Source: Tubulanus polymorphus (taxonomy: Eukaryota > Animalia > Nemertea). Taken from it: DNA of 64,000 bases. The notes beneath the pieces are model-generated. The model saw nothing but the letters and a program-made list of their open reading frames with translations, did no database searches and had not been told where the DNA came from. Position 1 is the stretch's first letter. Each line of letters begins with the position of its first letter. The DNA lies in the NCBI RefSeq assembly GCF_964204645.1, contig NC_134026.1, positions 11,989,950-12,053,949 of the forward strand. Direction: 5' to 3'. Positions 8,655 to 38,247 of the stretch are shown one piece after another. A program made the translations under genes and the position numbers.

Positions 8655-8673
8655 TTATTTAGAATAAAAATTA

Positions 8674-9121: not shown

Positions 9122-9343
9122 TTATATGGGAGGAATATATTTTTGTTTTTCCAAATAATCAATTGTTAAATTAGATAAAGTAACTGCTAACGTTAATTTC
9201 AAAATATCATTTATATCAAATCTGTCAACATTAACACTTCCCATTTTGAATACTTTTTTTAATACCATTGAATAACCAACAGTTCCAACTGATAGTAATG
9301 CGCCATTATATAATCCAGTTATTATCCACTTATTATCACTCAT
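9122..9343 (-). CDS. 73 aa small membrane protein
   Basis: Identical in protein sequence to 49753-49974; two hydrophobic segments. Confidence 0.8.
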   Translation of the reverse strand: MSDNKWIITGLYNGALLSVGTVGYSMVLKKVFKMGSVNVDRFDINDILKLTLAVTLSNLTIDYLEKQKYIPPI

Positions 9344-9700: not shown

Positions 9701-9716
9701 TTATATAATAAAAAAA

Positions 9717-10475: not shown

Positions 10476-10544
10476 TTATTTATAACATAAAAAAATTACC
10501 GCTCATCACTAAAAATTAATTTTAATAAAATTTTTCTTAAATAA

Positions 10545-11846
10545 ATGGAAGAGAAGATAGCATGTGAAATTTGTGGTGAACTTCTAAGAAAAAGTAATAT
10601 GGCTCGACATATGAAAAAACATAATGAAAATTATAAACCCCCTAAAATAAACTGCCCAAAATGTAATAAATTATTCTCAAGAAATTATGTTAAAAAACAT
10701 TCAGAGAAGTGTAGAATTAATGGTGCAACAGCTAATGTTGATAGTAATTCTGTTGAAGTTGAACCTGAAATTATTTGGAAAAGACCTTCCTTATTCTATG
10801 ATAAGGATAATATAAAAAATCATTTCTGCGAGCCTTGTCGAATGAAATACATCCCTGATAATAAAGAAGATTGGGAGAATCATCAATTTCGTAAAGCACA
10901 TATAGATAAAATTTCTAATAAATTTGAAACTGAATTCAATGAAAGAAAAAATAATTTATTAGAAAAAATAAAATATGAGAAAACGTTACCAGATAATGAA
11001 GAAACAGTTGAAAAGTTAGAAAAACAATATAATGAATTAACAAGAAAAACATATTATTGTAAATATTGTAAATTGATTATTACAACAAGTAATTCAAATC
11101 TACATAATAGAACAATAAAACATAAAGAAAACGTAAGAAAATACCAAGAGCTTAATGAAGATCTATTACCATTAAATTATAAACGAAAATGTCCACAATG
11201 TAGTTATGCGGCCTTAAGACAAGAAGGTACTGTGTTACTTTGTGTTGATTGTGGATGGCAAAAGAATTTATGGGATGAAGAAAAAACTAGAAATTTTCTT
11301 ATAGATCCAAAATTAAATTATCTTGATGAAATTTTTTAAATATTTTCTATAGAAGATCATACACCAGAATATATTCAATGGCTTAAAAAAATGAAAATAA
11401 TAGAAAATAAAAATGGTGAAATAACTAAAAAAGATATTATAAAAACAATTATTCCACCAACATTTAACACAAAAGAAAAGAAAATGTATTTATATTTATT
11501 ATTTAACGATTATTATGAAAAACCTAAATTAACAGAAGAAGATATGAAAAATATAAAAAAAATATTCAAACAAATATTAATGTATCATTTGGAAAATAGA
11601 ATAACAGATTCAATAAATTATGAATCCTTTTTAAATAAGATTGTAAATTATTTAAACCTAGATATTATAATTCCATTTGATGAATTAACAAACAAAAAGA
11701 AACAAAGAGAGCGAGATGAAATGTGGAACAAGATAGAACTTTATTTAAATGAGAAAAATGGAATGGAAGAAGAACCTGAACAATTAAATGAAAATGAAGA
11801 AGCCAATAGTGATTTCGAGTATGATGATATTGATTTTATGTTTTAA
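10545..11846 (+). pseudogene. Multi-zinc-finger protein (~433 codons) with one in-frame stop at 11337-11339
   Basis: C2H2 and U1-like fingers (CEICG...RHMKKH, YYCKYC...LHNRTIKH); copy B has AAG at this codon and its own stop elsewhere, so the two ORFs are one gene. Confidence 0.75.
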
Positions 11847-14800
11847 TGGCCATAAGGTAATGTTTTTATACCATCATCTAAAATATGCCTTTTATCATCA
11901 AATGGATTTAAACTAGTTTTTTCAACTTCATTAATGTACATCTCGTGATTTTCTGATCTTAAACAATTCATTTTATGTTTCATTACAATTGATTTATATA
12001 AACACTTTATATAATCTTGAAATTCTATATGTTTATCAACCACATGTTTTGTTATTCCTTTTAACTTTTTAGCTTCATGATCTTTTGTTCTATAACTATA
12101 CATTTTACTTCTTATCCCGACAAATTCAATCATTTCATCACCTCCTAATTCATCTTTAAACTTACCAGGAATCTTTTTATTATCATTACTAAACAATTCA
12201 TGATCTTTGGGGTAATTGCTAAAGTCGAAATAATGTTTCAATGTTTTTAAGTCTTTTGTTATATCATTTGTCTTGATTTTTAGTATGTAGGCGTCAGTAT
12301 CAAAATATAGAATTTCTATGTGTTTTTCCCCAAAATGGGGTTGTAATACATTATAATAAAATTCGTACATTAATAATTTTGAAACTTCTAAAACAGTTGA
12401 ACCTATAAATATTGGTTTATTAAATTTCATGGATGTTCTTTTTAATTTAACTGCTGTTAAATAATCCTCAAACCTTTTATTTCCTAGATGTCTAGGACTT
12501 GATTGTAGGTGTCTCAATCGTTCATAATTATTCACTAATTCAATGTCGTTTCTATTTCTAATATTTTCACATGTTTTTCCATAAAAACTATTGTTCATCA
12601 ATTTAAAAAAATCTTTTTCAAAATCTGTTTTTGATATTGTTCTCTGTTGAGTATTGAAATCTATATATTTTTCTAACCACTTCGATTGATTAAATTCAAT
12701 ATATCTATGTACTTTCTTTAATTTCATTCCTTGTTTTAGATAAAATTTTAACATTCTATAATGAACAATATAATTATATTTATTATTTTGAGTAAGTATT
12801 AATTTTTCTGTAAAAACATGATGTTTCGGTTTTATTTTCTTCTGGTATTCACTTAAATAACTATCATCTACAGTTAAATGTTCTGGGCAATAAGGTAAGT
12901 TTCTTGTTTTAAACTTTATATTTTCAGGATATTCTAAATCAACTACAAAGAAATAACCAATTGGTGCTTCGTCTTTTAAACTAATAATTGCGCTTTCCCA
13001 ATCAGTTTTATCATCATTTTCAACTTCTGTTAATATAAAATTTTTATATGGTTGAGGTTGCATCATTGCCCAACCATATAAATTATTGGCGTCAATATAT
13101 AATAATTTATATTCATCATTTGCTTTAAAATACCTATCTCCCATAACACCACTAATTCCACCTCTAATTGATTTTTCAAATAATAAAACCATATCTGGTT
13201 CTTTTAATAAATCTAATTCTACATTTGTATATTTTAAACCACATTGCCAGGTTAAACCAGGACTAGAGTAGCAATAACAAGGATCAACATTAAAATGATT
13301 CAAATTAACTTCTCTAAATTTTTCAAATATGTCAGCCAATATCATAACATCTGATTTTAAATATAAATCAACTAATTCACCATGATTCTTCATCTTAAAA
13401 TGGTTCCAAATATTTAATGTTCTATTAAACACTTCATCTTTCACATACTCCTCTTTTAATTTATCATAAAATTGATCTTTTAATAATTCTGTTACATTAA
13501 AATCATCATGTGTTTTATAAAATGAATAAGGAATTGCGCCTTTATATCTCAATAATTTAAAATCTTGGTCATTTGGATAATAATATCGAGTTATAATAAA
13601 ATCATTATCAACTAAACTTTTTGATAAATTATCTAATGAACTATTTAAAAATCTATATGAATCTATAAATCTAATGTAACCAAATTGAAATGAAATATAA
13701 TTTTCAGATGTTTTAGCTAATAGTTTAAAATCATATTTTCTTACATTTACACCATTCATAGCATTATATTCTTCTATTTCTTGATTAATTGCACCCAATT
13801 TCTTTGATAATTGTTTTATAAATAGATGGGTATCATACCCCGATAAATTGTGAAATATAATGGGGACAAAATTTACTTTTTTGGCTTGTAAATTGCAAGC
13901 CTCATGCGCAGCGCCTCTAAACTTTCCATTCAAATGATCATGGTCTCTTACTTTTTTATCTTTATAATTAAATATCTTTTCACAATAATAACATTTATCT
14001 GTAAACTCAAATACTTCTTTATCTTCTTCTGTCATAATTATTCTTTTATTTTTGTTTAATAATTTTGCAAAATCACTTTCTAATTCAATCATTTTATCAC
14101 AAAAATCATTAACTACATTTTCACCTCTAAAAGAAATATATTGACTTTCATATAATTCGGGATAATTTGATTTTATATAAATTCCATAAGCAGCAGCTCT
14201 TTGATGAACTTTTTTAATTGTATTTATAATTGGTGGGTCTTGTATTATGTCTTCATTTAATTCACTTCCTTTATCCATTGATTTTAATAATTGCTTTTTG
14301 TTATATATTTCTTTTCTATCTTGATCAGTTAATTCTTTATTCAATGATTCAAAATCCCCATAAATTACAAATGGAACAATATTTTTAAATTTATGATTAG
14401 TAAATTTCAATTTATAATCTTTTTCTGTTGGCATTATTAATTTACAAAAATCTTTATTATCACATAATTCTTTATGTTTTAATAATGTATTCTCTCAGTC
14501 ATAAATTTAGATAAACATTTTCTACATAGATAAATTTTATTATGATGATCACTTTCTGTTCTAAAGAATAAATCAATTTGTTTTAACCACATATAATGTT
14601 CATTTTCATCTTTTTTGTAATATAACAAATCTATAGCATTTTCATCATCATAATATTCTGTTAAATATAAAGCTTCCAATGTATAATCTTTAATATTTTC
14701 ACCTTTTGTCTTTGGTAATTGCATTAATTCGAATACATTTATTTTTAAATTATTAACTTTTTCTATTTTAGGAATCATTTTTATAGTTACTGGATATTGA

Positions 14801-15843
14801 TCAATTTTATATAATGTTTCATATTTCCGATAATCTGTTATTCTATAAACATGTTCTTCTGTTGGATGTAAGCAACTAATAATTGACCATAGAAAACATT
14901 TATTATCTTCATTTTGAATATTTATTACTGCTTTTGTTATAAATGGTAATTTGATATAACTTGATGCTTTCATATCTTTTTCTGTTATAAAGTTTGAATC
15001 ATTTTTAAACATTTTATTACTTTTTGATGTTTTATTTCTTTTTGTATTATAAACATTTAAATCTAAATATATAATTTCATTCAATGTTAAGCCAGAACCC
15101 TCAAAATATCTTTCTTCAATATGACGTTTAAATTCATTTAATATTTTTTCTAACTTCTCTTTTATTTGTGTTTTTGAAATTATTTCTTCAGAGTGTGTTT
15201 GAATATTATAATCCATTTTTTCTTCTGACTTTATAAAACTTACTTTCCCAGAGATACTAATTTTTGGATATTCAACATCTGTTATCAAATCTAGTATTTT
15301 TTCTATTATTTCATTAAATTTACTATAATCTTCTATTGTTGTACCTTTAAAGAATCTAAATATAATAGCTGCAGGGCCAATTTTACTATGTTATGTTTCT
15401 AAGATTTCAATTGTATCTTTTATTTCTAGTGAATCAATATAATTTCTAACATTTTCCATGTAAGGTTTATTTGAAATGGATTTTGTTTTTGAAGTTGATT
15501 CTTTTACTTGTTGAGGTTTATTATCAAAATATTCTAATCCTAAAACATTTTTATTTAAATTTTTATAATGTTTTTGTGATTCGAGATGTCTATTATAATT
15601 CCTTTTTACTATAAATCCATTACAAACTTCACATTTTATTTCATCCACATTCATATTTTCTAATCGTTCTTTTCTTTCATTAGAATTTTCTGGAGTTTCA
15701 AAATCTATTACATTTTTTATATGATTTGCAGTTTTTTCATGTCGTGTTTTATTAGATGTATCGATGTATTTTTTACAATATTGACAATAATATTGATTTT
15801 TATTGACATTATTGTTTTCTAGTTGGTGTTCATTCTCCCCCAT
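11843..15843 (-). pseudogene. POLB: Protein-primed DNA polymerase B with N-terminal zinc fingers and endonuclease VII-like insert; stop at 15391, frameshift near 14490; intein-free
   Basis: ExoI YGDFES, ExoII FHNLSGYD, pol A YIDANNLYG, pol B KLMNNSFYGKT, pol C YFDTDA, KxY RSKMY; CYYC...VRDHDH...GAAH..CNL insert. Confidence 0.95.
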
Positions 15844-15928
15844 TTATTAGGGAAAAAAATTACTTGTGGTGATGAGTGGTGTCTCGTCCTCTCGTCCTCT
15901 GGCCTGAAAGCCTACTTTTCTAATTACT
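15839..15928 (-). repeat. Right TIR of copy A (~90 bp)
   Basis: Reverse complement reads AGTAATTAGAAAAGTAGGCTTTCAGGCC-AGAGGACG-AGAGGACG-AGACACCACTCATCACC...; homologous to the left end at 63087. Confidence 0.88.
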
Positions 15929-15966
15929 GCAACTAAATATGTAATAGATTAACAAACCTGTTGAAT

Positions 15967-16574
15967 TTAAATAAATTCATATTTAAATGGGTGTTGTAAT
16001 CTAAATAGTAATTTTGATCTTTTATTATTTTTCAATTTATCCATATATTCATTATGTAAATCATGCGGAATAATATCATTTTCCTCAAGTGCATTTTTCA
16101 TCGATTTTCTATCTTTATTGTAGAATAAAACTAAAAATCTAATGTTTTCTCTAAAATCTTTAACAATTGAATTATATTTTTGATTTAAAACCCATGTTGT
16201 TATCCCAAAATGTCTACCAGAAAAAGCTAAATAACATAACTCACTCTCTCTAATTTTTGAATCATGTAAATTTGCACAATCATCTATAATGAATAATGTA
16301 TTTGATCCTTTATAAATATCTATTGCTATTTTAATACAATTATCTAAATTTTCTTTTACTGTTTTAGGATCTAATATAATAATTTATTATTTCTAGTAAT
16401 ATTTCTATCATAAGGTTGATTAAATTCATATGTTGGACAAAATAATACTATATTATCAAAATAGTTTTTATAAACAGTTTCTAATAAATTTAATATAAAA
16501 TAAGTTTTTCCACAATTTGTTACGCCAGAAATTAACATATTATGAGGCTCAAATATAAATAATTCCTTATTCAT
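15967..16574 (-). pseudogene. ATP: Packaging ATPase, frameshifted
   Basis: Near-identical to 2423-3031 with indels near 16380 and 16255. Confidence 0.9.
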
Positions 16575-17700
16575 TTATATATTTTTAATTTTACTTGATA
16601 ATATCCATTCATTGAATTTATCTGGCCATCCAACCCATTTTACTAAAGAATATTTTTTTCTTTTAATAGTTTTTGTTTTTAATACTTTTTCAATTTTATA
16701 TTCTTGTTCTAGATTTTCAGTAGTTAAACTCGATTCTTCTTCATATAAATACCCATCAACTTCTTCACCATCTAAATCTTCTAATTTATAGACATATGGT
16801 TTTGTTGTTATTACTTTTTTTATTTGATATATTTCTCTAGTAAAATTACGATCGTAACCTTTATCAAATATCTTTTTATATTTAGAAATTCTAACGTGTT
16901 GTCCTATTTTAAATCTAGGTTCACCAAAATCATCTACAAGAAATGCTCCATATAAATTATTCCAAGCAATTTCAGCATTTTCAGGTTTTCTAGCATCAAT
17001 AGGTTTCATTCCAATAGAAGAATGATAAGAATTATTATATCCTTCTATCAATTTTGGTAAAACATCAATCCATTTAAAAGTATTATTTGCTGTAAAATAT
17101 TTCCACATTCTTGTTCTTAATGTTCTATTAAATCGTTCAACAACTGCTGCTTTTTTATCCGATTTTGTTGAAAAATATTTAATATTATGATTGTCTAAGA
17201 GTTCATGAACAAGTGAATTATCAAATTCTTTTCCATCATCAAATTGTATTTTTTCTGGTTTTAGTTTATCATCCGAAAGAAATTTTCTTAAAACATGTGA
17301 TGTTTGTGCAGCATCTTTTCTATAAAGTGGGAAACTCCATACATAACGACTAAAAATATCAATTATATTCAATATCCACCAATAATCATAATTATCTTTC
17401 TTAACATTTTTCATATTTATTAAATCTTGCCACTGTTGATCCACATAACTTACCATAGTTTTACGAGTTTTATATTTTCTAACAATTTTTTTATGCGATG
17501 TATATGTTGGTTGTTCTAACATAAATACATTTATATCTTTATATTTAACTAAATTTTGTGGGATTATCTTATCTAATTTATCTTGTTTTACTTGACGCCA
17601 TATATTTTTGGTAGAAGAATAAGCAACCGAACTCTCGGGGTTGTAATATAAATTCCTTAAATATTGTTCTTTAGTATTAGGAGTTTTTTTTACCACCCAT
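16575..17700 (-). pseudogene. INT: Integrase with chromodomain; frameshift just after the ATG, remainder open
   Basis: ORF 16575-17696 has DDE and chromodomain motifs; the true ATAAATG start at 17700 is out of frame by one A. Confidence 0.9.
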
Positions 17701-17730
17701 TTATATATCGTTAATTTTAACTTTATATTT

Positions 17731-19279
17731 CTAATATTGAATACTATCTAATTGTGAATTTGCAATATTTAATTGTGCGTCAGATATAATATGAATGTGC
17801 TTTTTAAAATTTAAGCTTCCTTTTTTCTTTTTCATGAATAATTGTATTCCATCTTTAGTGTTCTGTAGTTTTTCCCAGAACCATGTAATGAATTATCCTC
17901 TGTTGTTCTAAAATCTAACCATAATGCATATTTATTACCGGCATAATAATCAATTTGATTAATATTACAATTTTCAGATGATTTTACTTTTTCATTCATA
18001 AAATGTTTTCTAATTTCTGGCCATTGATCAATCATTCTCATTCCTTGACAAAATATTTTATTTGCTATTCCTTCGATAGTTATTTCTACTTTTGTTATTT
18101 CAGGATTATGATAATTATCTACCTTTATTGCGCCATTAGAATATGTTGCAATAGTAAGAAATATTAATATGCCTTTAATAGATCTTCTTGGGGAGTTAAT
18201 ATTCTCATTAATTATTTCATCATTTGAATTAATAGTTACAGTTTTAAATTTATCAATATAATCATATAATAATGAAAATCCTTGATTGTATTGAGTTTGA
18301 ATTATACTTGAAATATTTTCATCAGTTACTGTATCATATTCTAAACATATATTCGATAATTTATATCCCATATCTTTAACAACGTTAGATAATACAATTT
18401 CATTTACAGGAGCAAATGTTATTTCGAATATAATATCTTCTTGAATTGCGTATTTATATAAAGGTGCATTATTATTTATCAATTCAAAGTCTAATGGAAT
18501 TTTATATTTGCTTCCATATATACTTTTTATCAATTTATCTACAGCATTAGTTAATATTGCGCTATTAGCTTCTGATCTTAATTTATTTTGGTTTTCTGAT
18601 TGGATGCCTTGAAATATCATATTATTTCTATTTTCTTTAGTTAACCATAAATCTTTATAATGCATAAATAAATTATAATCATCTTATGAGAAAACTGTTT
18701 CTGGACCAATCTTTATTGTTAACTTTTTAATATAATATCTTCTTGAACTACATATTTATATAAAGGTGCATTATTATTTATCAATTCAAAGTCTAATGGA
18801 ATTTTAGATCTGCTTCCATAAATCTTTTTAATCAAATTATCTACATCATTAGCTACTACTGCATTATTGGCTTCAGATCTTAATTTATTTTGGTTTTCTG
18901 ATTGGATTCCTTGAAATATCATATTATTTCTATTTTCTTTAGTTAACCATAAATCTTTATAATGCATAAATAAATTATAATCATCTAATGAGAAAACTAT
19001 TTCTAGACCGATCTTTATAGTTAATTTTTTAATAAAATATCTTCCAACATTATCGACAACATAATTATTATTATTACCGGTTACTTTTATATCAGCTGAT
19101 AAATAAATACTATTTGGAACATAAAAAGTATTTTGTGTTAACCGAGGAATTCTAACATATAAAGTTTCATCGGGATTAATATTAGAAGGATTATGAGTAA
19201 TTATATGATGTGATCTTTCTGCTTTAATAGCATTAGATATTCTATGATTCTTGGAAGGATTGATATAACTCCCACTCAT
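17731..19279 (-). pseudogene. PY: Major capsid protein with ~300 bp internal duplication and frameshifts
   Basis: Codons ~83-183 occur twice (about 18730-19030 and 18430-18730). Confidence 0.85.
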
Positions 19280-19299
19280 TTATTTAACAAAAAAGTTAA

Positions 19300-20735
19300 T
19301 TATTTATTTTTGATTATGTTTACTAACCCAAAAATAATAGCACTTACAACTGTAATTAAAAATAAAATAATATCTTCAGCAGCAAAGTTAATAATGTTCC
19401 CAGCAGATTTCAATATAAAACCAACAATTGATGCAATAATTCCTGGTAAAGCTGCAGCAGATTTTTTAGATAGTTCCCATAAATATTTTACTAATTTTTT
19501 TAAACCATCCTTAACTTTATCTTGTATAGAATTATTATCATTCGGGGGTTTATCCGGTTTATTGGGTGTAGGTGTAGATTTTAAAGCATTTGATATTGCT
19601 AAACCTATTGTTGTAAATACCATAGTTACAGCTGTTAGAATTGAAAGAATTGTTATTCCTTCTAATTTAAATAATCATTTTATTCTATCTTTCAATGATA
19701 TTTCAGAATTTGGTTTTATCAACAAATCTTTGAAAATAACTTTCAATCTATTACTATTATAATCATATGATTTTAATGATAATTTAATTTCTTCTTTCTG
19801 TAATTCTGTTATGTTATATTTTAAATCATCTTTTTGTTTTTCTAAACGTAATTCTTTTGCCTATATTCTATTTCATCAATTACTTGATGATCTAAATCAG
19901 ACTTTAATTGTTCTATTTCTTTATTTTTTCAGTTAATTCTTTTTCTAAAAATCTAATTTTAATATCTCTTATACTTTTATCATGCGCAATTTTATCAGCT
20001 TCCTTTCGTATACTAAAAATTTCTCTAATTGCTTCATCAGAAAATATATTTAAATCTTCTAATTCTTGATCTGTTGCATCAAGTAACCCATTTTCTAAAA
20101 GTTTTTCAGTTTGAACTTCGGTTGATTTAAGTTTACTAGTTTTGGAATTAATAACTTCTTTAGGAATTGTTTCTGGTTCTAAATTTTCATTAATTATCTT
20201 CAAAAAATCATCATTTCTTCGAATAAATTCTTTTCTATTTAGAGTTATCTCTTCTTCTGTAACATCAGTTATAACATCATTATTGATTTTCTTAATTCTA
20301 GATTGTTCTAATTTAATTAAAGTTGGTTTTGTTATTATTTTATCGCGACTTTTATTAGAAGAAATCTTAAAATAATAGTCATCTTTCAAATGCCAATAAT
20401 AATCACCATTTAAATATTTCAAATCTTTCAGTAAATAATTCACACCTTTATCTGTTATTTTGAATCCAGATTTTTTTAATATTGGTTTGAATTTATCAGT
20501 TAAATTGTCATATTAATTCTTTTTTTAATAAATCTGGATTTTCATTTTCAATGTCCAATCTTGAACGTGCTTTACTAACATATTCATTAGTATCAGGTCT
20601 TGCTAAATTAGAATTATATACCGTTTCATTATCGTTACTGAAGTTTGTATCATTAAATTTAGGTGGTTGTTCTTCAGTTATACCGGGTTCATCAAAAGTA
20701 TCCATTCCAATATTTTCTCCACCTTCTACATCCAT
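19300..20735 (-). pseudogene. Acidic/coiled-coil/TM protein, fragmented
   Basis: Homologous to 5459-6879; ORF pieces 20508-20735, 19913-20443, 19300-19623. Confidence 0.75.
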
Positions 20736-20751
20736 TTATATAATAAAAAAA

Positions 20752-20965
20752 TTAAAATTAGAAATATAATATTCCTCCTATAACAATTCCTACACAAGTT
20801 AAAGCTAATTTAGTATTTTCATGGGATTTATTATCATTATCAGTTTTAATTATATCATGTTGAATATTATCAGTTTTTATATTTTCTGTAGTGTTGTAAT
20901 ATTTTGTTTTAGAATCATTATTTAATTTAATATTCTTAGTTTTAGTTTCTGTTGATTGAATATGT
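20752..20965 (-). pseudogene. 3' remnant of the 435-aa TM protein gene
   Basis: Matches A 6896-7108, then abuts penton sequence at a deletion junction. Confidence 0.75.
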
Positions 20966-21640
20966 GGAATACAAGGTTTAAAATCACATTCTGTTAAATT
21001 ATAATTTATTTGCGTTCCAAATTGTTTAACATTTTTAATGGTAAAACATTTAATATACTAGAATTACAAGTTATATCTTTAGTTGCTTCAAATGTCTTTG
21101 TAGGATCAATTAAATTGCAATAAATATAAAAGTGTGTAAAAGGCATTAAATTTGATCTACCTTCTATGTTTGCTCTAACAATCATTTTATCTGGAGGAAT
21201 TCCTAACAGTTTAGCTAAGGGTTTTTAACCACGAAAGCAAATTTTTTTATACCTAAATCATTTTTAATTTCGTCATTTAACTTTATTTTAATTTTATTAG
21301 AACTCTCACTTTTTATGAATTTAATATTAAATTTGGAATCACCTCTAATTTGTATTCGTACTTTTCTATTAATTTCTTGAGCTAATGTTTCTAAATTATA
21401 TAATCCTGGTGTTAGCATAAGTTGAACCCATTTATGATTATTTTTACTAAAAATTAAAAAGACTATGTTCATCAGTTTTATCTGATACATTATAAAAAGA
21501 GTTACATAAACTTATATTTACTAATTTCAAATCTACACAATTCTTAAATTCTCATCTAATTGTACTAATAAATTATGTGATTTATAATTTGTAAGTCTTC
21601 TTGAATCAACAAATATTCTGTATTCTTTTAATTCACCCAT
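20966..21640 (-). pseudogene. PX: Penton, frameshifted and 3'-truncated
   Basis: PGLYNLETLAQEINRK; matches A 9823-10475. Confidence 0.8.
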
Positions 21641-21708
21641 TATTTATAACACAAAAAAATTACCGCTCATCACTAAAAATTAATTTTAATAAAATTTTTC
21701 CTTAATAA

Positions 21709-23033
21709 ATGGATGAGAAGATAGGATGTGAAATTTGTGGTGAACTTATCAGAAAAAGTAATATGGCTCGACATATGAAAAAACAGGATGAAAATTATAA
21801 ACCCCCTCAACTAAACTGCCCAAATTGTAATAAATTATTCTCAAGAAATTATGTTAAAAAACATTCAGAGAAGTGTAAAATTAATGAGGCAACGGCTAAT
21901 GTTGATAGTAATGAAAGTAATAGTAATTCTATGGAAGTTGAACCTGAAATTATTTGGAAAAGACCTTTCTTATTCTATGATAAGGATAATATAAAAGATC
22001 ATTTCTGTGAGCCTTGTAGAGTAAAATATAACCCTGAAAATATAGAAGATTGGGAGAATCATCAATTTCGTAAAGTACATATAGATAAAATTTCTAATAA
22101 ATTTGAAACAGAATTCAATGAACGAAAAAATAAAATATTAGAAAAAATGAAATATGAGAAAACGTTACCAGATAATAAAGAAACAGTTGAAAAGTTAGAA
22201 AAACAATATAACGAATTAACAAGAAAAATATATTATTGTAAATATTGTAAATTGATTATTACAACAAGTTATTCAAATCTACATAATAGAACAATAAAAC
22301 ATAAAGAAAACGTAAGAAAATACCAAGAGCTTAATGAAGATCTATTACTAAGAAATGATAGACAAAAATGCCCAAAATGTATTTATGAGTACTTAAGACA
22401 AGAAGGTCCTGTGATATTTTGTAATGAATGTGGATGGCAAAAAAATTTATGGAGTGATGAAAAAACTAGAGATATTCTTATAGAACCAAAATTAAAATAG
22501 CTAGATGAAATATTTAAGATATTTTCTATGGAAGATCATACACCAGAATATAAGCAATGGCTTGAAAAAATGAAAATAATAGAAAATAAAAATGGTGAAA
22601 TAACTAAAAAAGATATAATAAAAACAATTATTCCATCAACATTTAACACACAAGAAAAGAAAATGTATTTATATTTATTATTTAATGATTATTATAAAAA
22701 ACCTAAATTAACAGAAGAAGATATGGAAAATATAAAAGACACATTCAAACAAATATTGAGATATTATGTGGATAATAGAATAACAGATTCAATTAATTAT
22801 GAATTCTTTTAAAATAAGATTGTAAATTATTTAAACATCGATATTATAATTCCATTTGATGAATTAACGAACAAAAAGAAACAAAGAGAGCGAGATGAAA
22901 TGTGGTACAAGAAATAACTTTATTTAAATGAGAAAAATGAAATGGAAGAACCTAAACAAATTATACGAGAACAATTAAATGAAAAAGAAGAAACCAACAG
23001 TGATTTCGAGTTTGATGATATTGATCCATTTTA
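21709..23033 (+). pseudogene. Multi-zinc-finger protein with stops and frameshift
   Basis: Homolog of 10545-11846. Confidence 0.78.
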
Positions 23034-26000
23034 ATAACCATAAGGTAATGTTTTTATACCATCATCTAAAATATGCCTTTTATCATCAAATGGATTCAAA
23101 CTAGTTTTTTCAACTTCATTAATGTACATCTCGTGATCTTCTGATCTTAAACAATTCATTTTGTGTTTCATTACAATTGAGTTATATAAACACTTTATAT
23201 AATCTTGAAATTCTATATGTTTATCAACCACATGTTTTGTTATTCCTTTTAACTTTTTAGCTTCATGATCTTTTGTTCTGTAACTATACATTTTACTTCT
23301 TATCCCAACAAATTCAATCATTTCATCACCCCCTAATTCATCTTTAAACTTACCAGGAATCTTTTTATTATCATTGCTAAATAGTTCATGATCTTTGGGA
23401 TAATTGCTAAAATCAAAATGATGTTTCAATGTTTTTAAGTCTTTTGTTATATCATTTGTCTTGATTTTTAGTATGTAACTGTTAGTATTGAAGCAAATTA
23501 ATGGAAATCCACAGTTGAATGTGCCATCTTCAGTTGATAAATCATAAACATAATCTGTTGGGTTAGATATTTCAAATAAATCTTCTTCAGTTAAATCTTT
23601 TTCTGTGTGGCTTAAATTAAAGCAATTTGGTTTAGATTTAATCAATCCAATATTCATATTGAAGCCTAATGAATTACATAATATATTTAACCCTGATATA
23701 GCAACTTTTCCTTTCTGTGCAAAGGTTATCTTTTTATCCTTTGTAAATTTTTTAGCACCATCTGCTGCGTAGAATCCAATGAAGAACCATTTTCTTAAAT
23801 TATTTTTTGCATTTAATACATAATCTGGAACTATCTTTTCTTTAGTTGAAGTATTACTTTTCACTATTGCATGAATATAGAATTCATCATTATATTTTAT
23901 AGCAAAATCTTTAGGATTACTTACAAATATTCTATAAACCGCGGATGATTTCATATGATCCATAATTCTAAATGTTTTATGTGAATAAACTTCTTCGCAG
24001 AATTTCTATATTCTTTCTAATAATTTCAAATCTTGATTGCATAAATACCAACGATATTGAGTGCGATTAACATATTTATACACACCTGCTGAACCATCAC
24101 CCATGAAAAATCCTTTGATAAAATATTCTTTTTCTTCTAATGTTTCAGGTTCTATATTATAAATATTATCAATTACTTCATCAAATGACATATGATTCAT
24201 TCTTTGGAAAAATCTTTTATGTAATAATTCATCTCCAATTTTTATATCAGTTGGTTTTATTTCATTACCATTTCGTTTAATTAAACTATGATCTTCTGTA
24301 ACATCTACAAACCCTAATTTAGTTCTAACTCCATAGATTTTCTTATTTGTTTTATGCCTAATAATATTCTTTAATTTTTTCCATCCATTTCTTGTCCAAA
24401 CATCCATTAAACCATTTATTTGTATTAATTCTTTTTCACCATATGAAATATAACATTCATTTTGTTTTGGAATTATTTCTGAAATTCTTCTTATCAATAT
24501 TTTATCATTACATTTTAACAATATTGGGGTGTCAGCTGTTACAGAATCAAAATATAATATTTCAATATGCTTTTCCCCAAAAAGTGGTTGTAAAACATTA
24601 TAATAAAAATCATACGTTAATAATTTTGATACTTCTAAAACAGTTGAACCAATGAATATAGGTTTATTAAATTTCATTGAGGTTCTTTTTAATTTAACTG
24701 CTGTTAAATAATCTTCAAATCTTTTATTTCCTAAATGTCTAGGACTTGATTGTAAATGTCTTAATCGTTCAGAATTATTTACTAATTCAATATCATTTCT
24801 ATTTCTAATATTTTCACATGTTTTACCATAAAAACTATTATTCATTAATTTGAAGAAATCTTTTTCAAAATCTGTTTTTGATATTGTTCTGTGTTGAGTA
24901 TTGAAATCTATATATTTTTCTAACCACTTCGATTGATTAAATTCAATATATCTATGTACTTTCTTTAATTTCATTCCTTGTTTTAGATAAAATTTTAACA
25001 TTCTATAATGAACGATATATTTGTATTTATTATTTTGAGTAAGTATTAATTTTTCTGTAAAAACATGATCTTTCGGTTTTATTTTCTTCTGGTATTCACT
25101 TAAATAACTATCATCTACGGCTAAATGTTCTGGGCAATAAGGTAAGTTTCTTGTTTTAAACTTTATGTTATCAGGATATTCTAAATCAACTACAAAGAAA
25201 TAACCAATTGGTGCTTCATCTTTTAAACTCACAATTGCGCTTTCCCAATCAGTTTTATCATCATTTTCAACTTCTGTCAATATAAAATTTTTATATGGTT
25301 GAGGTTGTATCATTGCCCAACCATATAAATTATTGGCGTCAATATATAATAATTTATATTCATCATTTGCTTTAAAATACCTATCTCCCATAACACCACT
25401 AATTCCACCTCTAATTGATTTTTCAAATAATAAAACCATGTCTGGTTCTTTTAATAAATCTAATTCTACATTTGTGTATTTTAAACCACATTGCCAGGTT
25501 AAACCAGAACTAGAGTAGCAATAACAAGGATCAATATTAAAATGATTCAAATTAACTTCTCTAAATTTTTCAAATATGTCAGCCAATATCATAACATCTG
25601 ATTTTAAATATAAATCAACTAATTCACCATGATTTTTCATCTTAAAATGGTTCCAAATATTTAATGTTCTATTAAACACTTCATCTTTCACATACTCCCC
25701 TTTTTAATTGATCATAAAATTGATCTTTTAATAATTCTGTTACATTAAAATCATCATGTGTTTTATAAAATGAATAAGGAATTGCACCTTTATATCTCAA
25801 TAATTTAAAATCTTGTTCATTTTGATAATAATGTTGAGTTATTTTAAAATCATTATCAACTAAACTTTTTGCTAAATTATCTAATGAACTTGCTAGAAAT
25901 CTATAAGAATCTAAAAATCTAATGCAACCAAATTGAAATGAAATATAATTTTCCGATGTTTTAGCTAATAGTTTAAAATCATATTTTCTTACATTTACGC

Positions 26001-27984
26001 CATTCATAGCATTATATTCTTCTATTTCTTGATTAATTGCTCCCAATTTTCCCGATAATTGTTTTATAAATAGATGGGTATCATAGCCTGATAAATTATG
26101 AAATAATATTGGAACGAAATTTACTTTTTTAGCTTGTAAATTACAATCTTCATGAGCAGCCCCACGATATTCTGAATTTAAATGATCATGATCTCTAACT
26201 TTTTTATCAAATGAATAAAAACGTTTTTCACAATAACAACAATCAGTTGCATTATTAAAATCAATTTCATCTTCTTTTGTCATAACTATTCTTTTATTTT
26301 TGTTTAATAATTCTGCAAAATCACTTTCTAATTTAATTATTTTGTTACAAAAATTATTAACCACATCTTCACCTCTAAAAGAAATATATTGACTTTCATA
26401 TAATTCAGGATAATTTGATTTTATATAAATTCCATAAGCAGCAGCTCTTTGATGAACTTTTTTAATTGTATTTATAATTGGTGGGTCTTGTATTGTGTCT
26501 TCATTTAATTCGTTTCCTTTATCCATTGATTTTAATAATTGCTTTTTGTTATATATTTCTTTTCTATCTTGATCAGTTAATTCTTTATTCAACGATTCAA
26601 AATCCCCATAAATTTCAAATGGAACAATATTTTTAAATTTATGATTAATGAATTTCAACTCACAATCTTTTTTGTTGGCATTATTAATTTGCAAAAATCT
26701 TTATTATCACATAATTCTTTATGTTTTAGTAACGCATTCTCAGTCATAAATTTAGATAAACATTTTCTACATAGATAAATTTTACGATGGTAATCACTTT
26801 CTGTTGTTCTAAAGAATAAATCAATTTGTTTTAACCACATATAATGTTCATTTTCATCTTTTTTGTAATATAACAAATCTATAACATTTTCATCATCATA
26901 ATATTCTGTTAAATATAAAGCTTCCAATGTATAATCTTTAATATTTTCACCTTTTGTCTTTGGTAATTGCATTAATTCAAATACATTTATTTTTGAATGA
27001 TTAACTTTTTCTATTTTAGGAATCATTTTTATAGTTACTGGATATTGATCAATTTTATATAATGTTTCATATTTCCGGTAATTTGTTATTCTAAAACTAT
27101 GCGTCATATCTTCTGTTGGGTGTAAACAACTAATAATTGACCATAGAAAACATTTATTATCTTCATTTTGAACATTTATTACTGCTTTTGTTGTAAATGG
27201 TAATTTAATAGAACTTGATGCTTTAATATCCTTTTCTGTTGTAAAGTTTGAGTCATTTTTAAACATTGTTTTACTTTTTGATGTTTTATTCCTTTTTGTA
27301 TTATAAACATTTAAATCTAAAAATATAATTCCATTCAATGTTAAACCAGAACCCTCAAAATATCTGTCTTCAATATGACGTTTAAATTCATTAAATATTT
27401 TTTCTAACTTCTCTTTTATTTGCGTTTTTGAAATTATTTCTTCAGAGAGTGTTTGAATATTATAATCCATTTTCTCTTCTGACTTTAAAAAACTTACTTT
27501 CCCAGAGATACTAATTTTTGGATATTCAACATCTGTTATCAAATCTAGTATTTTTTCTATTATTTCATTAAATTTACTATAATCTTCTATTGTTAAAAAA
27601 ATCTAAATATAATAGCTGCAGGACCAATTTTACTACGTAATGTTTCTAATATTTCTATTGTATCTTTTATTTCTAGTGAATCAATATAATTTCTAACATT
27701 TTCCATGTAAGGTTTATTTGAAATAGATTTAGTTTTTGAAGCTGGTTTTTTTACTTGTTGAGGTTTATCGTCAAAATAATCAATTCCTAAAACATTATTA
27801 CTCAAATTTTGATAGTGTTTTTGTGATTCGTGTTTTTCTGGAGTTTCAAAATCTATTACATTTTTATATGATTTGCAGATTTTTCATGTTTAGATTTATT
27901 AGATTTATCAATGTATTTTTTACAATATGGACAATAATATTGATTTTCATTAACATCAATTTGTTCTGTGTTATTCTCTCCCAT
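23031..27984 (-). pseudogene. POLB: Protein-primed PolB with intein, multiple frameshifts
   Basis: Same motifs as A; motif C split as YFD-[intein]-TNSY. Confidence 0.93.
23487..24545 (-). mobile_element. Intein (~353 codons) with LAGLIDADG homing endonuclease in pPolB motif C; one in-frame TAG at 24006-24008
   Basis: Precise in-frame 1059-nt insert absent from A and C. Block A SVTADTPILL, block B VDVTEDHSLI, LAGLIDADG blocks YFIKGFFMGDGS and WFFIGFYAADG, block F YVYDLSTEDGTF, ends CFN followed by extein Thr. Confidence 0.93.
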
Positions 27985-28316
27985 TTATAAGGAAAAAAAA
28001 TTACTTGTGGTGATGAGTGGGGATTACTTCCCCATGTCTATAACAAGCGCGCTATTAACCGTTCTCATCCAAGCCTCACAGCATCTATTTATCCGAGCAC
28101 AGCTGACACGCAATCACTGTACCACAGTAATAGCACACGCGTTAATAACCGTTCTCAGTAGCGACTCACTGTATCGATCTATCCACGCGCAGTTGTTGTT
28201 ACGCGCACTCACTGTATACATGTATCACAACGCTGTTGACCGTTCTCGGCCTAGCTGTGATGAGTGGTGTCTCGTACTCTCGTACTCTGGTATGGAACCC
28301 CACTTTTCCTATTACT
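27980..28316 (-). repeat. Right terminus of copy B with a 236-bp extra block between 11-bp direct repeats
   Basis: GTGATGAGTGG at 28010-28020 and 28257-28267; terminus reverse complement AGTAATAGGAAAAG...AGAGTACG-AGAGTACG-AG. Confidence 0.8.
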
Positions 28317-28339
28317 CCCTTAATTTGAAATTAACCTAG

Positions 28340-29260
28340 TGATGTCCAGCTCAGAGACTCGAAATTTACACAAACACTCGTGAAAAAGGGCGATGATTAA
28401 TTAACTCAGAAACTCAGAATGTACTAACAAAATCACCTTTGAAATTAAAAGGGCAGTGATTTCAGCTCACAGAAACTCGGAATTCACCTACAAAGTCACT
28501 TGCGAAATTTAAAAAAAGATGATTTCAGCTCAGAAATTCAGAATTTACCTAAATCACTTATGAAATGCGATGATTTCACTTCAGAAATGTAGCGGTGTGA
28601 CATCGCTCTCTTGAAAAGAAACCATTGTTGTTCTGGTGAGTTGTGTGTGATCCCGGTTGTCACTGCGAAATTAAAAGGGCGATGATTTCAGCTCAGAAAC
28701 TCGGAATTTACCTAAAAGTCACTTGCGACATTAAAAGGGCGATGATTTCGGCTCAGAAACTCGGAATTTACCTAAAAGTCGCTTGCGAAATTAAAAGGGC
28801 GATGATTTCGGCTCAGAAACTCGGAATTTACCTAAAATTCGCTTGCGAAATTAAAAGGGCGATTATTTCGGCTCAGAAACTCGAAATTTACCTACAAAAT
28901 CGCTTGCGAAATTAAAAGGGCGATGATTTGAGCTCAAAAACTCGGAAAATACCTAAAAAGTTACTTGCGAAATCAAAAGTGCTCATTTCAGCTCAGAAAC
29001 TCGGAATTTAGCTGTAAAGTCAATTGCGAAATTAACAAAAAGGGCGATGATTTCAGGTCAGAAACTCGGAATTTAGCTACAAAGTCACTTCCGAAATTAA
29101 AAGAGCGATCATTTCAGCTCAGAAACACAGAATTTACCTACAGAATCACTTGCGAAATTAAAAGGGCGATGATTTCAGGTCAGAAACTCGGAAAATACCT
29201 CAAAAGTCACTTGTGGAAATAAAAGGGCGATGATTTCAACTCAGAAACAATGAATTTACG
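28340..29260. repeat. Tandem satellite, ~60-bp unit, roughly 14 degenerate copies
   Basis: Unit approximately AAAGTCACTTGCGAAATTAAAAGGGCGATGATTTCAGCTCAGAAACTCGGAATTTACCT. Confidence 0.9.
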
Positions 29261-30403
29261 TAGTCGGATACTCCCTTATACATGTATCACGATCACATTT
29301 ATATCACATGAATACTGATGGTCCAGAATTTTCTCCTCTTTTCTCTTTTCCGTTCCGACCATTTTTTTCTGGCTGTAAATCGATGATACATGTCAACAGT
29401 CGTTATTCTAGTTGTGAGAGTATATTGGAAAAAATAAACCCGAAATATTTCAGTGTTTTTAATCATTTCTTGTAGATATGGATTACATTTTTCCGTTTAC
29501 AAAAATTAATTGGAAGTCGTATAGTTTTTGGAAACGGCTGGAAATTTTCGAAGTCGAAGGATTTGTCTGGTCCCAAATGATCCAACTTACGCAAGGCTTT
29601 AGACTTCGGATAAACCGTCGAAATCACTTTTCTAATTTTAAAACTAGTTATTCATAGCTCAGGAAGTCGGAAGAAACCCCACTTCATCTCTCCTTGCAGA
29701 ATCGGATTTGGCACTGGAAATTATTTTGTAAAATGTGTTTTAACTACCCCACTAAACAACGAGTCAACATGTTTAATGGATGGCTGAATTTTTAAATTTT
29801 GATGCTATGTATGTTGCGCTCATCTTAATCACTGTTCTAAACATTTAGGCTAAGTAACATCACGATGTGAACGCATTACATGTAATATTATGATTGAAAC
29901 AATAAAAATAAATCCATGCTTCAAAATATTTCGTATTGGGGCATTACGTCGAGTACTTCAGTAATTATCATTAAATGATATGATAAAATGCCAGAAAAAT
30001 GTATGTGTAGGGCTGAACAGGTCATTCGTTGGGCTCTGCATCAAAGATCTGGTCTGCAGCAACGATGTGGGGGCCTCGAGATATTGCATTAGAAGCCTTG
30101 GCAGTACATAGGAATCGATCTGCAGTCTGGGCCGACCACAATTCGATATTTTTCCTTCTATATATTTCAGATATTCGCCCAACGGTGTTGTCTTCCAGTC
30201 AAAACTATACATGCATAAACTACTCAACTAAAATACCCAATACGATAACGTGAACGTCGGAAATTGATGTCGGGAATTGAACATGTGTAGGCCCTAGTCG
30301 TATAAGGAATTAAGTATGCTGCATCGAATCGATCCTATTCCTTTTCAGCAATGGAAACACAACGCTATGGTCTTATTTGAAAATATCTTTATTGACATGT
30401 AAA

Positions 30404-35131: not shown

Positions 35132-35336
35132 AGTAATAGGGGTTTAGTTGGTTCATACCAAAGGTCGAAAGGTCGAGCTCGTAAAAATGAAAAATATGAA
35201 AATAATAACAATTTCTACTTGAATTAGTCGCGTACACTCCTAATTCAAGTAGAAATTATTATTATTTTCATATTTTTCATTTTTTACTCACTCGCCCTTT
35301 CAACCTTTGATATGAACCAACTAAACCCCTATTACT
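35132..35336. repeat. 205-bp imperfect terminal palindrome (hairpin)
   Basis: AGTAATAGGGG...TTGAATTAG-TCGCGTACACTC-CTAATTCAA...CCCCTATTACT; ~96-bp arms, 12-nt loop; inverted truncated copy at 38087-38247. Confidence 0.92.
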
Positions 35337-35759
35337 CTTAAAATATTCATATACATGGATAAAATATATATATGAATAACATGTAAATTTATAGATTATC
35401 CAATATAAAAGTGTGAGTAAAGTGTTAGTAAAAAAGTAACGAGTAATTAACGAGCTCTAATAGAATAGATATATAGATATATTTTAAACATATTTCAATA
35501 TCTATATTTGTATGAGTTAGATTTTTTAACATTAAAAGTGTTAGTAAAGTGTGATTGAAATAATTCATATATATTTATATGCGTTAAATTCTTATTTTCA
35601 ATATAAAAAGTAACGAGTAATTAACGAGTGAAATAATTCATATTTAAAACAGTGAATATTTATATTGATATGCGTTAAATTCTTATTTTATGTTTAAAAG
35701 TAACGAGTAATTAACGAGTTGATGAAAATATCAATTTAAATAAAAAACTACTTATAATT

Positions 35760-36293
35760 ATGAATGAACAGATACTACATTTCAAAGATATCGATTTAAA
35801 TGAATTAGAAAAATATTTTACAATTAAAAATTTTATTCCTATTAAAGATTTGATTAAAACTGCGCGTCTTCGTTTTCAAGTGAAAAATATTACTGAATTA
35901 GTGTTTAAAAATCATTATCTGATAATAGAGTTACCGAATGATGAAGATAAATTCTTATTCAATACAATAATTCCAAAATTCACAACATTTGATGGAATAG
36001 ATAAACATTTAATAATTACAGATGAAATGCAATCACTTTTTAATAATGAAAATTCACATAAAACATTATTTTTACACTTACGTTATTGCCCATTCAGAGA
36101 ATGCTATGTTATGTTTTTCAGATTACAAGAAAAGAGATTTATCCCTGACATTCCAAATGAAAAATCATATAAAGATGTTGGAATTCAATGTAATTTAGAT
36201 AATGAAATTGTTGCGCCTGAATATAATCCTAATGAAAGCGTTTTATGTGATTGTGGAAAATATTATATAAATATTGTTTGTCAGTTGAAATGA
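35760..36293 (+). CDS. Hypothetical protein of element D
   Basis: 177 aa open frame in very AT-rich DNA; no recognised domain. Confidence 0.55.
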   Translation: MNEQILHFKDIDLNELEKYFTIKNFIPIKDLIKTARLRFQVKNITELVFKNHYLIIELPNDEDKFLFNTIIPKFTTFDGIDKHLIITDEMQSLFNNENSHKTLFLHLRYCPFRECYVMFFRLQEKRFIPDIPNEKSYKDVGIQCNLDNEIVAPEYNPNESVLCDCGKYYINIVCQLK

Positions 36294-36500
36294 TAAATTG
36301 TTTGACAGTTGAAATGATAAATTGTTTGACAGTTGAAATGATAAATTGTTTGACAGTTGAAATGATAAATTGTTTGACAGTTGAAATGATAAATTGTTTG
36401 ACAGTTGAAATGATAAATTTTTTGACAGTTGAAATGATAAATTGTTTGACTGTTGAAATGTTAAATTGTTAGACTGTTGAAATGTTAAATTGTTTGGCTG
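36282..36500. repeat. 24-bp tandem repeat, about 9 copies
   Basis: CAGTTGAAATGATAAATTGTTTGA units. Confidence 0.9.
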
Positions 36501-36620
36501 TAAATTTAATTGTTATTTGATTTAATCATTTAAAAGTTTAATATTTTTAAAATGATTATAAAATATTTAATTAAAAACTAGCAAATATTTTATAAACTGT
36601 TTAATTTTTCTCTTAAATAA

Positions 36621-36839
36621 ATGGATGGTTTCATCCCAACTGGGAAAAGTGATTTGAAACATTATTTAGTATCAGGCGGATTAATATTGGCTGCGCTTTT
36701 CTTTTATTATGAAAATATCAGTAAGGATTTGATTAATGAAAATATAAAATTGAGCAAGAAATTAAAGAAGTTAAATGGAAACAATCACAGAAAGGATAAC
36801 AATACAAAAGTTAATGATTTAAATGATTTGGAGGATTAA
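36621..36839 (+). CDS. Small single-TM protein of element D
   Basis: 72 aa, YLVSGGLILAALFFYY; preceded by TTTTTCTCTTAAATAAATG, the family start motif. Confidence 0.6.
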   Translation: MDGFIPTGKSDLKHYLVSGGLILAALFFYYENISKDLINENIKLSKKLKKLNGNNHRKDNNTKVNDLNDLED

Positions 36840-36886
36840 AACAGCATGTATTAATTTAATTTATTCTATATATTTTGACTATAAAA

Positions 36887-37138
36887 ATGAGTGAAAATAA
36901 GGTATTAGAAATATTACATCTAATATATAAAAATCAACAGAATATTAAATCAATTATTATGATTTCAGGTTTATTTTCATTCTCAGTTTATACTATAAAA
37001 CAGTTGTTAGAATTCTATGATTGCTGTAAAATTAGATACACTGAATTAATAGAAAATATGAATTATATTTCAGATCGAATAAATAATATTAAATGCTGTG
37101 AAATATGTAATAAAAGATATAAAAATAAAAGAGTTTGA
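36887..37138 (+). CDS. Small putative membrane protein with C-terminal CCxxC
   Basis: ATG at 36887 in ORF 36875-37138; hydrophobic IIMISGLFSFSVY. Confidence 0.4.
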   Translation: MSENKVLEILHLIYKNQQNIKSIIMISGLFSFSVYTIKQLLEFYDCCKIRYTELIENMNYISDRINNIKCCEICNKRYKNKRV

Positions 37139-37609
37139 GAAATCACATGTATATTCATGAACTTGATGAAAAATTATATGAATCAAAATAAGAAATCGAC
37201 TGTTAAATTAGCTGAAAATATAAAATATATTAGTTGAAATGTATGAAAATAAAAGTTAATAAAAAAGGGGGGTTGAGGTATCAATGTATTAGATACCCTA
37301 TTAGATACCCTAATACCAGGTATTAAATACGTATCAAATACGTATTGATGGTATTAAATACATATTATGCTTTATTTCTGAAAATGAAGTAACAGAAGTA
37401 ATTTATGTTTTAATTCATTCAAGTATGATATTGTAAATTCTTTACATTTGACTAGGATAATACAAGAGTGATATTAGTTAGTTGGCTTATTCAATAAGAG
37501 AAACAATGAAATAATACAAGAGTGATACTAACAGTTAAAGTTATTGAATTTCTTGTTAAATCTATTTGAATTCTAGTCAATTCTTGTTAACCAATAGCGC
37601 GAATAGAAA

Positions 37610-37697
37610 TCAAAAAGATTTAAATAAATAAACAATAAGTTAAATAAGTTAGTAATAGATAAAGTAACTTATTGTTTTTTTATTTAAATCTTTTTGA
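37610..37697. repeat. Internal inverted repeat (hairpin) in D
   Basis: TCAAAAAGATTTAAATAAA...AACAATAAGTTA pairs with TAACTTATTGTT...TTTATTTAAATCTTTTTGA. Confidence 0.75.
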
Positions 37698-38247
37698 GTT
37701 AGTTACTTTTAAACATAAAATAAGAATTTAACGCATATAAATATAAATATTCACTGTTTTAAATATGAATTATTTCACTCGTTAATTACTCGTTACTTTT
37801 TATATTGAAAATAAGAATTTAACGCATATAAATATAAATATTCAATGATTTACATATGAATTATTTCAATCACACTTTACTCACACTTTTTATGTTTAAA
37901 AATCTAACTCATACAAATATAAATATTGAAATAATGTTTAAAATATATCTATATATCTATTCTATAAGAGCTCGTTAATTACTCGTTACTTTTTTACTAA
38001 CACTTTGCTCACACTTTTATATTGAATAATCTATCAATTTATATGTTATTCATATATATTTTATCCATGTATATGAATATTTTAAGAGTAATAGGGGTTT
38101 AGTTGGTTCATATCAAAGGTTGAAAGGGCGAGTGAGTAAAAAATGAAAAATATGAAAATAATAATAATTTCTACTTGAATTAGGAGTGTACGCGACTAAT
38201 TCAAGTAGAAATTGTTATTATTTTCATATTTTTCATTTTTACGAGCT

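Follow-up and report, generated by a model that had tools for sequence, protein, structure and literature searches.

An intein in the polymerase gene of a Polinton

We analysed a 64,000-nucleotide stretch of DNA (hereafter the window) that holds three related AT-rich Polintons (22-25% GC) within host DNA of 35% GC. Copy 1 occupies positions 1-15928 (about 16 kb). Copy 2 (15945-28316, minus strand) has its left part missing and consists of an ATPase remnant, an integrase, a putative capsid region, a polymerase and a terminal repeat ending at 28316, and copy 3 is inverted, at about 46200-61300. The polymerase gene of copy 2 is interrupted by a 353-codon in-frame insert (23487-24545, minus strand; 1059 bases) that lies exactly between the Asp and the Thr of polymerase motif C (YFD/T, the slash marking the insertion point). 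Upstream lies the N-extein of a protein-primed family B polymerase (24546-27988, minus strand; start approximate), which is split into several frames in copy 2, and downstream lies the C-extein (23031-23486, minus strand), which provides the +1 Thr nucleophile and has lost the catalytic Asp of motif C. The translated insert opens with SVTADTP and closes with ICFN, preceded by ILYFD and followed by TNSY. Its boundaries are fixed because copies 1 and 3 read YFD/TD without interruption: the empty target site of copy 1 is YFD/TDA (12284-12313, minus strand; between 12298 and 12299) and that of copy 3 is YFD/TDS (47696-47725, plus strand; after 47710), with N-exteins 96% and 72% identical to that of copy 2, respectively. 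No further copy of the insert was found elsewhere in the window.

The translation, the empty alleles, profile matches and the predicted fold identify the insert as a full-length intein, with a Hint domain and a two-motif LAGLIDADG endonuclease, in a pseudogenised copy. Block A (SVTADTP, 24525-24545; this and the following motifs are on the minus strand) starts with the N-terminal Ser nucleophile, which is nearly invariant in a 40-row alignment. In the same alignment Thr83 and His86 of block B (VDVTEDHSL, 24282-24308) and V333, Y334, D335 and T338 of block F (YVYDLST, 23532-23552; Asp335) are invariant. Block G (23487-23510) ends in the terminal Asn and includes a GFPL motif that one giant-virus intein clade also has, according to the extracted inteins and the trees described below. 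The two LAGLIDADG motifs, FIKGFFMGDGS (24090-24122; recognised from translation, profile match and family comparison) and FFIGFYAADGA (23754-23786; from translation, the 40-row alignment and family comparison), supply the catalytic acidic residues Asp150 and Asp262. The N-terminal Ser, TxxH in block B, the Asp of block F, the terminal Asn and the +1 Thr expected of a class 1 intein are present. An AlphaFold2 model built from the 40-row alignment has a predicted local distance difference test (pLDDT) score of 88, and its top Foldseek matches are all intein-homing endonucleases (template modelling score 0.65), among them TliVMA (E = 5e-16), PI-PkoII, PhoVMA, PI-PfuI and PI-SceI.

Profile searches with the insert gave two models above their cut-offs, the curated intein N-terminal model TIGR01445 (28.1 against 24.5 bits) and the Pfam family LAGLIDADG_3 (PF14528; 25.0 against 22.5 bits). 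The Pfam Intein_splicing model (PF14890) tells against the identification, in that it matches the window copy with E = 4.8e-6 yet at 26.9 bits falls below its cut-off of 35.8. The penultimate residue of the window intein is Phe, not His, as had been noticed at the outset. Among 125 full-length inteins that we extracted, this position is Lys in 71, His in 40, Ser in 7, Phe in 6 and Gln in 1, so a penultimate His is not required in this intein family. Five further inteins of the 125 end in Phe-Asn, while relatives of the window intein end in His-Asn, Lys-Asn or Ser-Asn (His in 6 of 10 Polinton inteins), and we rejected penultimate Phe as a family trait.

The motif C insertion point is the pol-c site as defined in PMC549080. 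Since the insert lies between the Asp and the Thr of motif C and groups with pol-c inteins, it is confirmed as a real intein of the pol-c allele type. The original prediction had described a precise in-frame insert of 1059 nucleotides at motif C, with a Ser start, TEDH, two LAGLIDADG blocks, VYDL and a terminal Asn before Thr; each of these is seen in the translation, the two empty alleles in the window bear out its ends, and the assignment to pol-c agrees with both the empty-allele boundaries and the grouping in trees.

The window copy is dead. The intein has a premature stop at codon 180 (24006-24008, minus strand), beyond which it cannot be translated, motif C has lost its catalytic Asp and the polymerase frame is broken further upstream, and because of these lesions the polymerase of copy 2 cannot be made as a working protein. 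The decay read from the internal TAG and from TNS in place of the catalytic Asp was therefore real. The window intein is also two codons shorter near its C-terminus than its relatives. A second sample under the same species label was available as run X6, of which about 12% was examined. Its raw reads differ from the window at both lesions, in 191 of 199 cases at the stop codon and in 119 of 120 at the catalytic-Asp codon, and they include reads of the empty site. The lesions are therefore private to the window copy, and the species has Polintons with the intein alongside others that lack it. The intein is also multi-copy in the species. Depth in X6 is 138-257x over the intein against 268-548x over the flanking gene, and because the depth relative to the flank varies greatly from run to run (about 2-10x in X6 and far higher in the summed contigs of run X4), only the term "multi-copy" is claimed. 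In a small, selected sample of variants (41 rows picked by hand from more than 400 in the read tables), 11 of 17 window-private variants are replacements, and variants common to copies are mostly silent in the extein (12 of 15, with 3 replacements). Those in the intein (5 of 9 silent, 4 replacements) do not clearly lean that way and give no evidence of selection on the intein in this species, which we count against our account. No RNA dataset was among the sequencing runs listed as holding the sequence. The marine metagenome X5 (a small share) gave only short pieces, the best of 197 bases with 4 differences, and was not used to judge habitat.

The remaining genes fit the Polinton assignment to differing degrees. 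The sister polymerase gene of copy 1 (11843-14494) matches PF03175 (E = 8e-19) and also the EndoVII/HNH family PF02945; the integrase matches rve (E = 6e-8) and has a chromodomain; and the packaging ATPase matches Pox_A32 (E = 4e-13). The terminal repeats are inverted (window 1-40 is the inverse of 15836-15875), with ends in ATTACT at 15928 and 28316, and copy 1 falls within the 15-20 kb typical of Polintons. The left ends, where a 6-bp target site duplication would be sought, are outside the window or missing. A contig of run X1 departs from the window exactly at 28316, which fits an empty insertion site. A satellite array of 60-61 bp units (28327-29262) directly adjoins this end of copy 2, and the X1 contig sits in the 60-bp satellite and may derive from another array. 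For a 415-residue capsid candidate the model is poor and unusable (pLDDT 32), and we found no Pfam or PDB match, no relatives on viral contigs and no resemblance to the one viral capsid candidate compared with it. In copy 2 the putative capsid gene has an internal 300-bp duplication (18417-19044). A fourth element of the family begins at 63085-63540 with a terminal repeat and first gene and is cut short, and beside its start is a Gypsy-type gag/protease remnant (61884-62754). An AT-rich element of about 3.1 kb (35132-38247) has 530-bp inverted ends (94% identical), a 24-bp tandem array and a 192-codon open reading frame without a Pfam match; inverted ends related to its own form a palindrome at 61446-61884. 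A transposase-like gene (44497-46217), distantly ISAzo13/Zator-like by Atlas, adjoins copy 3 and truncates the start of its polymerase.

The intein in other Polintons and signs of mobility

We next looked at relatives of the intein. Homologue searches returned 52 short and 562 long matches, and 8 of the best 120 of the 562 long ones, together with the top short ones, lie in Polinton-type polymerases at the same site. By homology, at least four other lineages of Polinton polymerase, from other assemblies, have this intein in the identical position. Over the whole intein these relatives are 39-63% identical to the window copy (63% for P0110, 46-48% for the group of P0111, P0057 and P0112, 45% for P0114 and P0115, and 39-40% for P0086, P0119 and P0120), and by identity the Polinton inteins rank ahead of most inteins of giant-virus family B polymerases (PolB), the best of which reaches 41%; inteins from archaeal and Asgard-labelled metagenome-assembled genomes (MAGs) reach 34-36%. 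Ser1, TEDH, both LAGLIDADG aspartates, the block F Asp, the terminal Asn and the +1 Thr are kept in all 10 Polinton inteins, whose mutual identity is 39-80%. Intact copies exist: 7 of the 15 listed members of the P0111 cluster (136 in all) are unbroken intein-bearing polymerases of 1537-1539 residues, and the contigs that encode them measure 95 kb to 1 Mb. A further 4 of the 15 have an empty motif. The 15 members listed for the P0115 cluster include 5 that are filled and 1 that is empty.

The intein is rare overall in Polinton polymerases. None of the 150 best polymerase representatives has it, in a ranking that disfavours filled proteins. A phage collection gave two weak matches (28-33% identity), and intein scans of viral, metagenome and prokaryote contigs gave 37, 80 and 69 loci. 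Among 189 loci examined, a Polinton-type polymerase was seen only in the three that had been retrieved by the polymerase itself, and these three are without the intein. One free viral contig (L118 from IMG/VR, 15.5 kb) has a related polymerase (36-41% identity) without an intein and no other gene in common with the window Polintons. A type II topoisomerase (P0116, 1897 residues) has three inteins, two of which are related to the pol-c-type family but sit at acidic motifs different from its usual one (EGD/S and QD/TDG), which suggests ectopic homing by that family.

Three results point to homing besides descent. First, in the P0111 cluster alleles with and without the intein share about 99% identity across 1041 residues, yet differ at positions -2, -4, -6, -7, +3, +4, +8 and +9 relative to the site. 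Of the 10 differences upstream, 4 are no more than 7 residues away from the site, and 4 more differences lie within 9 residues after it. Second, differences between copies 1 and 2 in the window are three times denser just before the site (17 of 150 bases) than over the rest of the coding sequence compared (53 of 1425; p = 1.6e-4), with 21 silent and 4 replacement differences in the nearest 80 codons. Third, the intein of P0114 nests inside the Polinton intein clade (99/92), yet its polymerase belongs to another class that is hardly alignable (E = 1e-3 to the profile) and lacks the HNH domain, which argues for a further jump between polymerase classes. We take P0114 to be probably of the pPolB1/Alpha type and the window polymerase of the pPolB2/Beta type, judging by their motifs. 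Based on these results, we consider it likely that the intein still spreads between Polinton copies.

The same distribution might follow from one entry into one Polinton lineage and then vertical descent with repeated loss, the intein still splicing and its endonuclease no longer driving any spread. In a tree of the polymerase sequence preceding the site, made from 75 of the 150 representatives, the 8 filled rows and the 2 window empties (85 rows in all), all 8 filled rows fall in one 13-row clade (support 99) together with 5 empties. The intein tree largely mirrors the polymerase tree and matches it for three lineages, so that descent and repeated loss explain part of the pattern, and the absence of the intein from the 150 best representatives also speaks for this history. 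Three points thus weigh against continuing spread: this agreement, the inability of the trees to tell gain from loss, and a second patch between window copies 1 and 2, 1500-1800 bases upstream, that is more divergent than the site (60 of 300 bases), so the peak at the site is not unique. Descent and loss would, however, have to accommodate at least four changes of intein presence on the polymerase tree, precise loss recurring in three genomes, at least one jump into P0114, differences clustered at the site between near-identical alleles, and both catalytic aspartates retained throughout at 39-80% identity. We regard this history as unlikely by comparison with an intein that still moves.

The upstream patch (about 26050-26350) lies in the N-terminal part of the polymerase near the HNH domain, shows 14-27% divergence between copies 1 and 2, and is possibly another conversion tract. 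A further observation concerns the residues after the site. Empty alleles reading D-T-D-A occur beside the intein in two genomes (12290-12298 of the window, minus strand; P0509, P0510, P0512 and P0513), and among the 150 polymerase representatives 143 read D-T-D-S and none D-T-D-A. These alleles may possibly be homing-resistant sites, against which stand a filled polymerase with TDA (P0007) and two empty ones with TDS (P0520 and window copy 3).

The host of the element

The original prediction had placed the intein in an animal genome. Neighbouring transposons make an animal, and more exactly a marine invertebrate, the likely host; no ordinary host gene was seen in the window. For instance, the transposase adjoining copy 3 (44661-46217) has, among 120 listed relatives, 7 that are named, of which 6 are from marine invertebrates and rank highest and one is from Rhizophagus. 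A retrotransposon remnant at 38567-40035, whose reverse transcriptase matches are led by arthropod clusters, has motifs that we take to be of BEL/Pao type. Elements of the BEL/Pao type have been reported only from animals (PMC8556966). PNMA-type gag remnants are also present in the window, and the low-copy flank occurs in three samples with the same species label.

If the host were a fungus or protist, or if the scaffold came from a symbiont or contaminant, the intein would sit in the viral element of a microbial eukaryote, a setting for which there is precedent in integrated viral polymerase inteins of algae and a labyrinthulid (PMC10710043). The Atlas neighbours of the transposase, mostly Mucoromycota clusters, and its one named match to Rhizophagus lean this way, as does the depth over the flank (19-119x, out of 1.9 Gb of reads), which suggests a small genome or a repeated flank; with the lack of host genes, these are the points that tell against an animal. 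The top-ranked marine invertebrate relatives of the transposase and the BEL/Pao-like and PNMA-type remnants oppose them. We consider a non-animal host unlikely, and an animal host very probable.

Origin, mechanism and meaning

To place the Polinton inteins among their relatives we extracted 138 inteins, of which 125 are full length and 100 remained after removal of near-copies; extraction missed some, such as that of ChoanoV1 (P0195), which are absent from the trees. In the 100-row tree all 10 Polinton inteins form one clade (Shimodaira-Hasegawa support 100), whose sister is a group of 26 PolB inteins with a C-terminal G-x-P-L motif that includes the giant-virus contigs L001, L002 and L009, and both groups fall inside a wider set of giant-virus pol-c inteins. 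Under a mixture model, with 51 of the 100 rows, support is 100/99 for the Polinton clade and 99/94 for its sister relation to the G-x-P-L giant-virus clade, which is the nesting among nucleocytoplasmic large DNA virus pol-c inteins that had been predicted. Grouping the Polinton inteins with three archaeal-type inteins is rejected (approximately unbiased test, p = 0.011), and with it an archaeal donor. A long stem leads to the Polinton clade (0.5 changes per site), and the insert and the host polymerase gene have much the same GC content at third positions (0.16 versus 0.15), which together argue that the transfer from giant viruses was old. The family thus likely stems from a single ancient transfer out of the corresponding site in a giant-virus polymerase, and the window element most likely got its intein from other Polintons. 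Giant-virus sites match the empty sites of the window at 9-15 of 18 bases, plausibly enough for a rare off-target homing event. A giant-virus origin has three weaknesses: only some rows of the sister clade (the giant-virus MAG contigs L001, L002 and L009) are labelled as giant-virus, the Mimivirus intein P0175 lies further out than the sister clade, and the root of the intein tree rests on two topoisomerase inteins.

The source named by the original prediction, a giant virus, is therefore supported, whereas its scenario of a jump from a co-infecting virus into this element is not. A recent direct jump into this Polinton family would agree with giant-virus PolB pol-c inteins being the nearest relatives outside Polintons, but the best of these is 41% identical, against 63% over the full length for another Polinton intein, and the long stem leads to an old clade of ten members that are 39-80% identical to each other, with a codon composition matching that of the host gene. 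On identity, stem length and codon composition we rejected a recent single jump, which we hold to be very improbable. Least credible is an assembly chimera or a contaminant fragment joined into the polymerase, for which it can be said that no listed contig piece spans the whole stretch and which is refuted by contigs of runs X1 (24412-24816) and X4 (24343-24608) crossing the 5' junction, by continuous read depth and by the finding of this insert, at the identical codon, in assemblies unrelated to the window, so that the locus stands the test for contamination or misassembly raised at the start.

Based on this evidence, we propose that copy 2 holds a decayed full-length intein in the catalytic motif of a Polinton polymerase, belonging to a family that was acquired once from giant viruses, is predicted to splice and is likely to be spreading, in what is likely a marine invertebrate genome; we think this account is probably correct. 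From established intein chemistry, intact members would splice by the class 1 route, in which an acyl shift at Ser1, aided by the block B Thr and His and the block F Asp, would be followed by attack of the +1 Thr and by Asn cyclisation. Splicing would rebuild the D-T-D catalytic motif, so that the polymerase would work only once spliced. The LAGLIDADG domain is expected to cut the empty site, of roughly 18-30 bp, in another Polinton copy or a co-replicating Polinton genome, and repair off the filled copy would then transfer the intein with flanking bases. The first jump may have gone through the codons of motif C, the sole stretch well shared by RNA-primed and protein-primed family B polymerases, and the many empty Polinton targets in one nucleus could let the intein persist in an animal lineage. 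On a more far-reaching account we are evenly divided: an ancient and still mobile Polinton intein family in several animal genomes would have crossed from the RNA-primed polymerases of giant viruses, and jumped between Polinton polymerase classes, and would splice in animal cells each time the elements replicate and drive gene conversion among the chromosomal copies, with rare TDA empty sites as escape alleles.

What is new here is the class of host protein; the pol-c allele type is already known. The intein resembles those of Mimivirus PolB and other giant-virus pol-c inteins (PMC549080) in its motif C site (YGD/TDS in theirs), Ser start, terminal Asn and +1 Thr, and in its two LAGLIDADG motifs and length of about 350 residues, with 38% identity to the Mimivirus intein (P0175) and 41% to those of the nearest giant-virus contigs. 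Unlike these, its host is the protein-primed polymerase of an integrating Polinton rather than an RNA-primed PolB, the Polinton sites read Y(F, M, G, S or L)D or ASD/SSD, and the element resides in a chromosome and is multi-copy. Pol-c inteins of archaeal PolB (Thermococcus and Asgard-labelled MAGs) have the same allele type and fold but are at most 36% identical and were rejected as the sister group. The Hint domains of animal Hedgehog proteins have the same Hint fold and occur in animal genomes, but they have no endonuclease and do not join two exteins. Endogenous giant-virus inteins of Klebsormidium, Tetrabaena and a labyrinthulid (PMC10710043) are likewise viral polymerase inteins on nuclear scaffolds; they arrived with a whole giant-virus gene in non-animal hosts, whereas the Polinton intein has moved from one class of polymerase to another, and its host element is mobile, multi-copy and accompanied by empty alleles. 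Inteins of iridoviruses, which PMC549080 and PMC5784728 mention, are active in animal cells but belong to free viruses, not inherited chromosomes. Insertions of HNH and VSR nucleases in Polinton polymerases, with no LAGLIDADG in the available text, were described by Jeong in 2023 (PMC10748475), and for nuclease insertions an origin by intein invasion was guessed by Krupovic in 2024 (PMC11071308). These too put a nuclease domain within a Polinton polymerase, and the window polymerase itself has an HNH-type domain; the window insert, however, comes with a complete Hint domain and interrupts the catalytic motif, whereas the insertions described in those papers remain in the protein and have no reported splicing domain.

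In the literature on inteins, Polintons and protein-primed polymerases we found no intein with a splicing domain in any protein-primed polymerase, a negative that supplements, Repbase, InBase or subscription journals could overturn; the original prediction, too, knew of none in a Polinton polymerase. Inteins are stated in reviews to be absent from metazoans (PMC8529194), in line with the initial view that they are essentially unknown from animal nuclear genes. The Polinton intein family would provide direct sequence evidence that giant viruses and Polintons have exchanged DNA at the active site of the polymerase, and an intein allele would be seen crossing polymerase classes that share little beyond one motif. 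In what is likely an animal genome, these multi-copy elements would offer a natural case of drive by a homing endonuclease, in which filled and empty alleles can be counted. Its cysteine-independent (Ser/Thr) inteins and endonucleases, apparently evolved in eukaryotic nuclei, are candidates for protein engineering. If the more far-reaching account above is true, animal nuclear genomes would have in this family their first heritable inteins and their first homing endonucleases borne by inteins.

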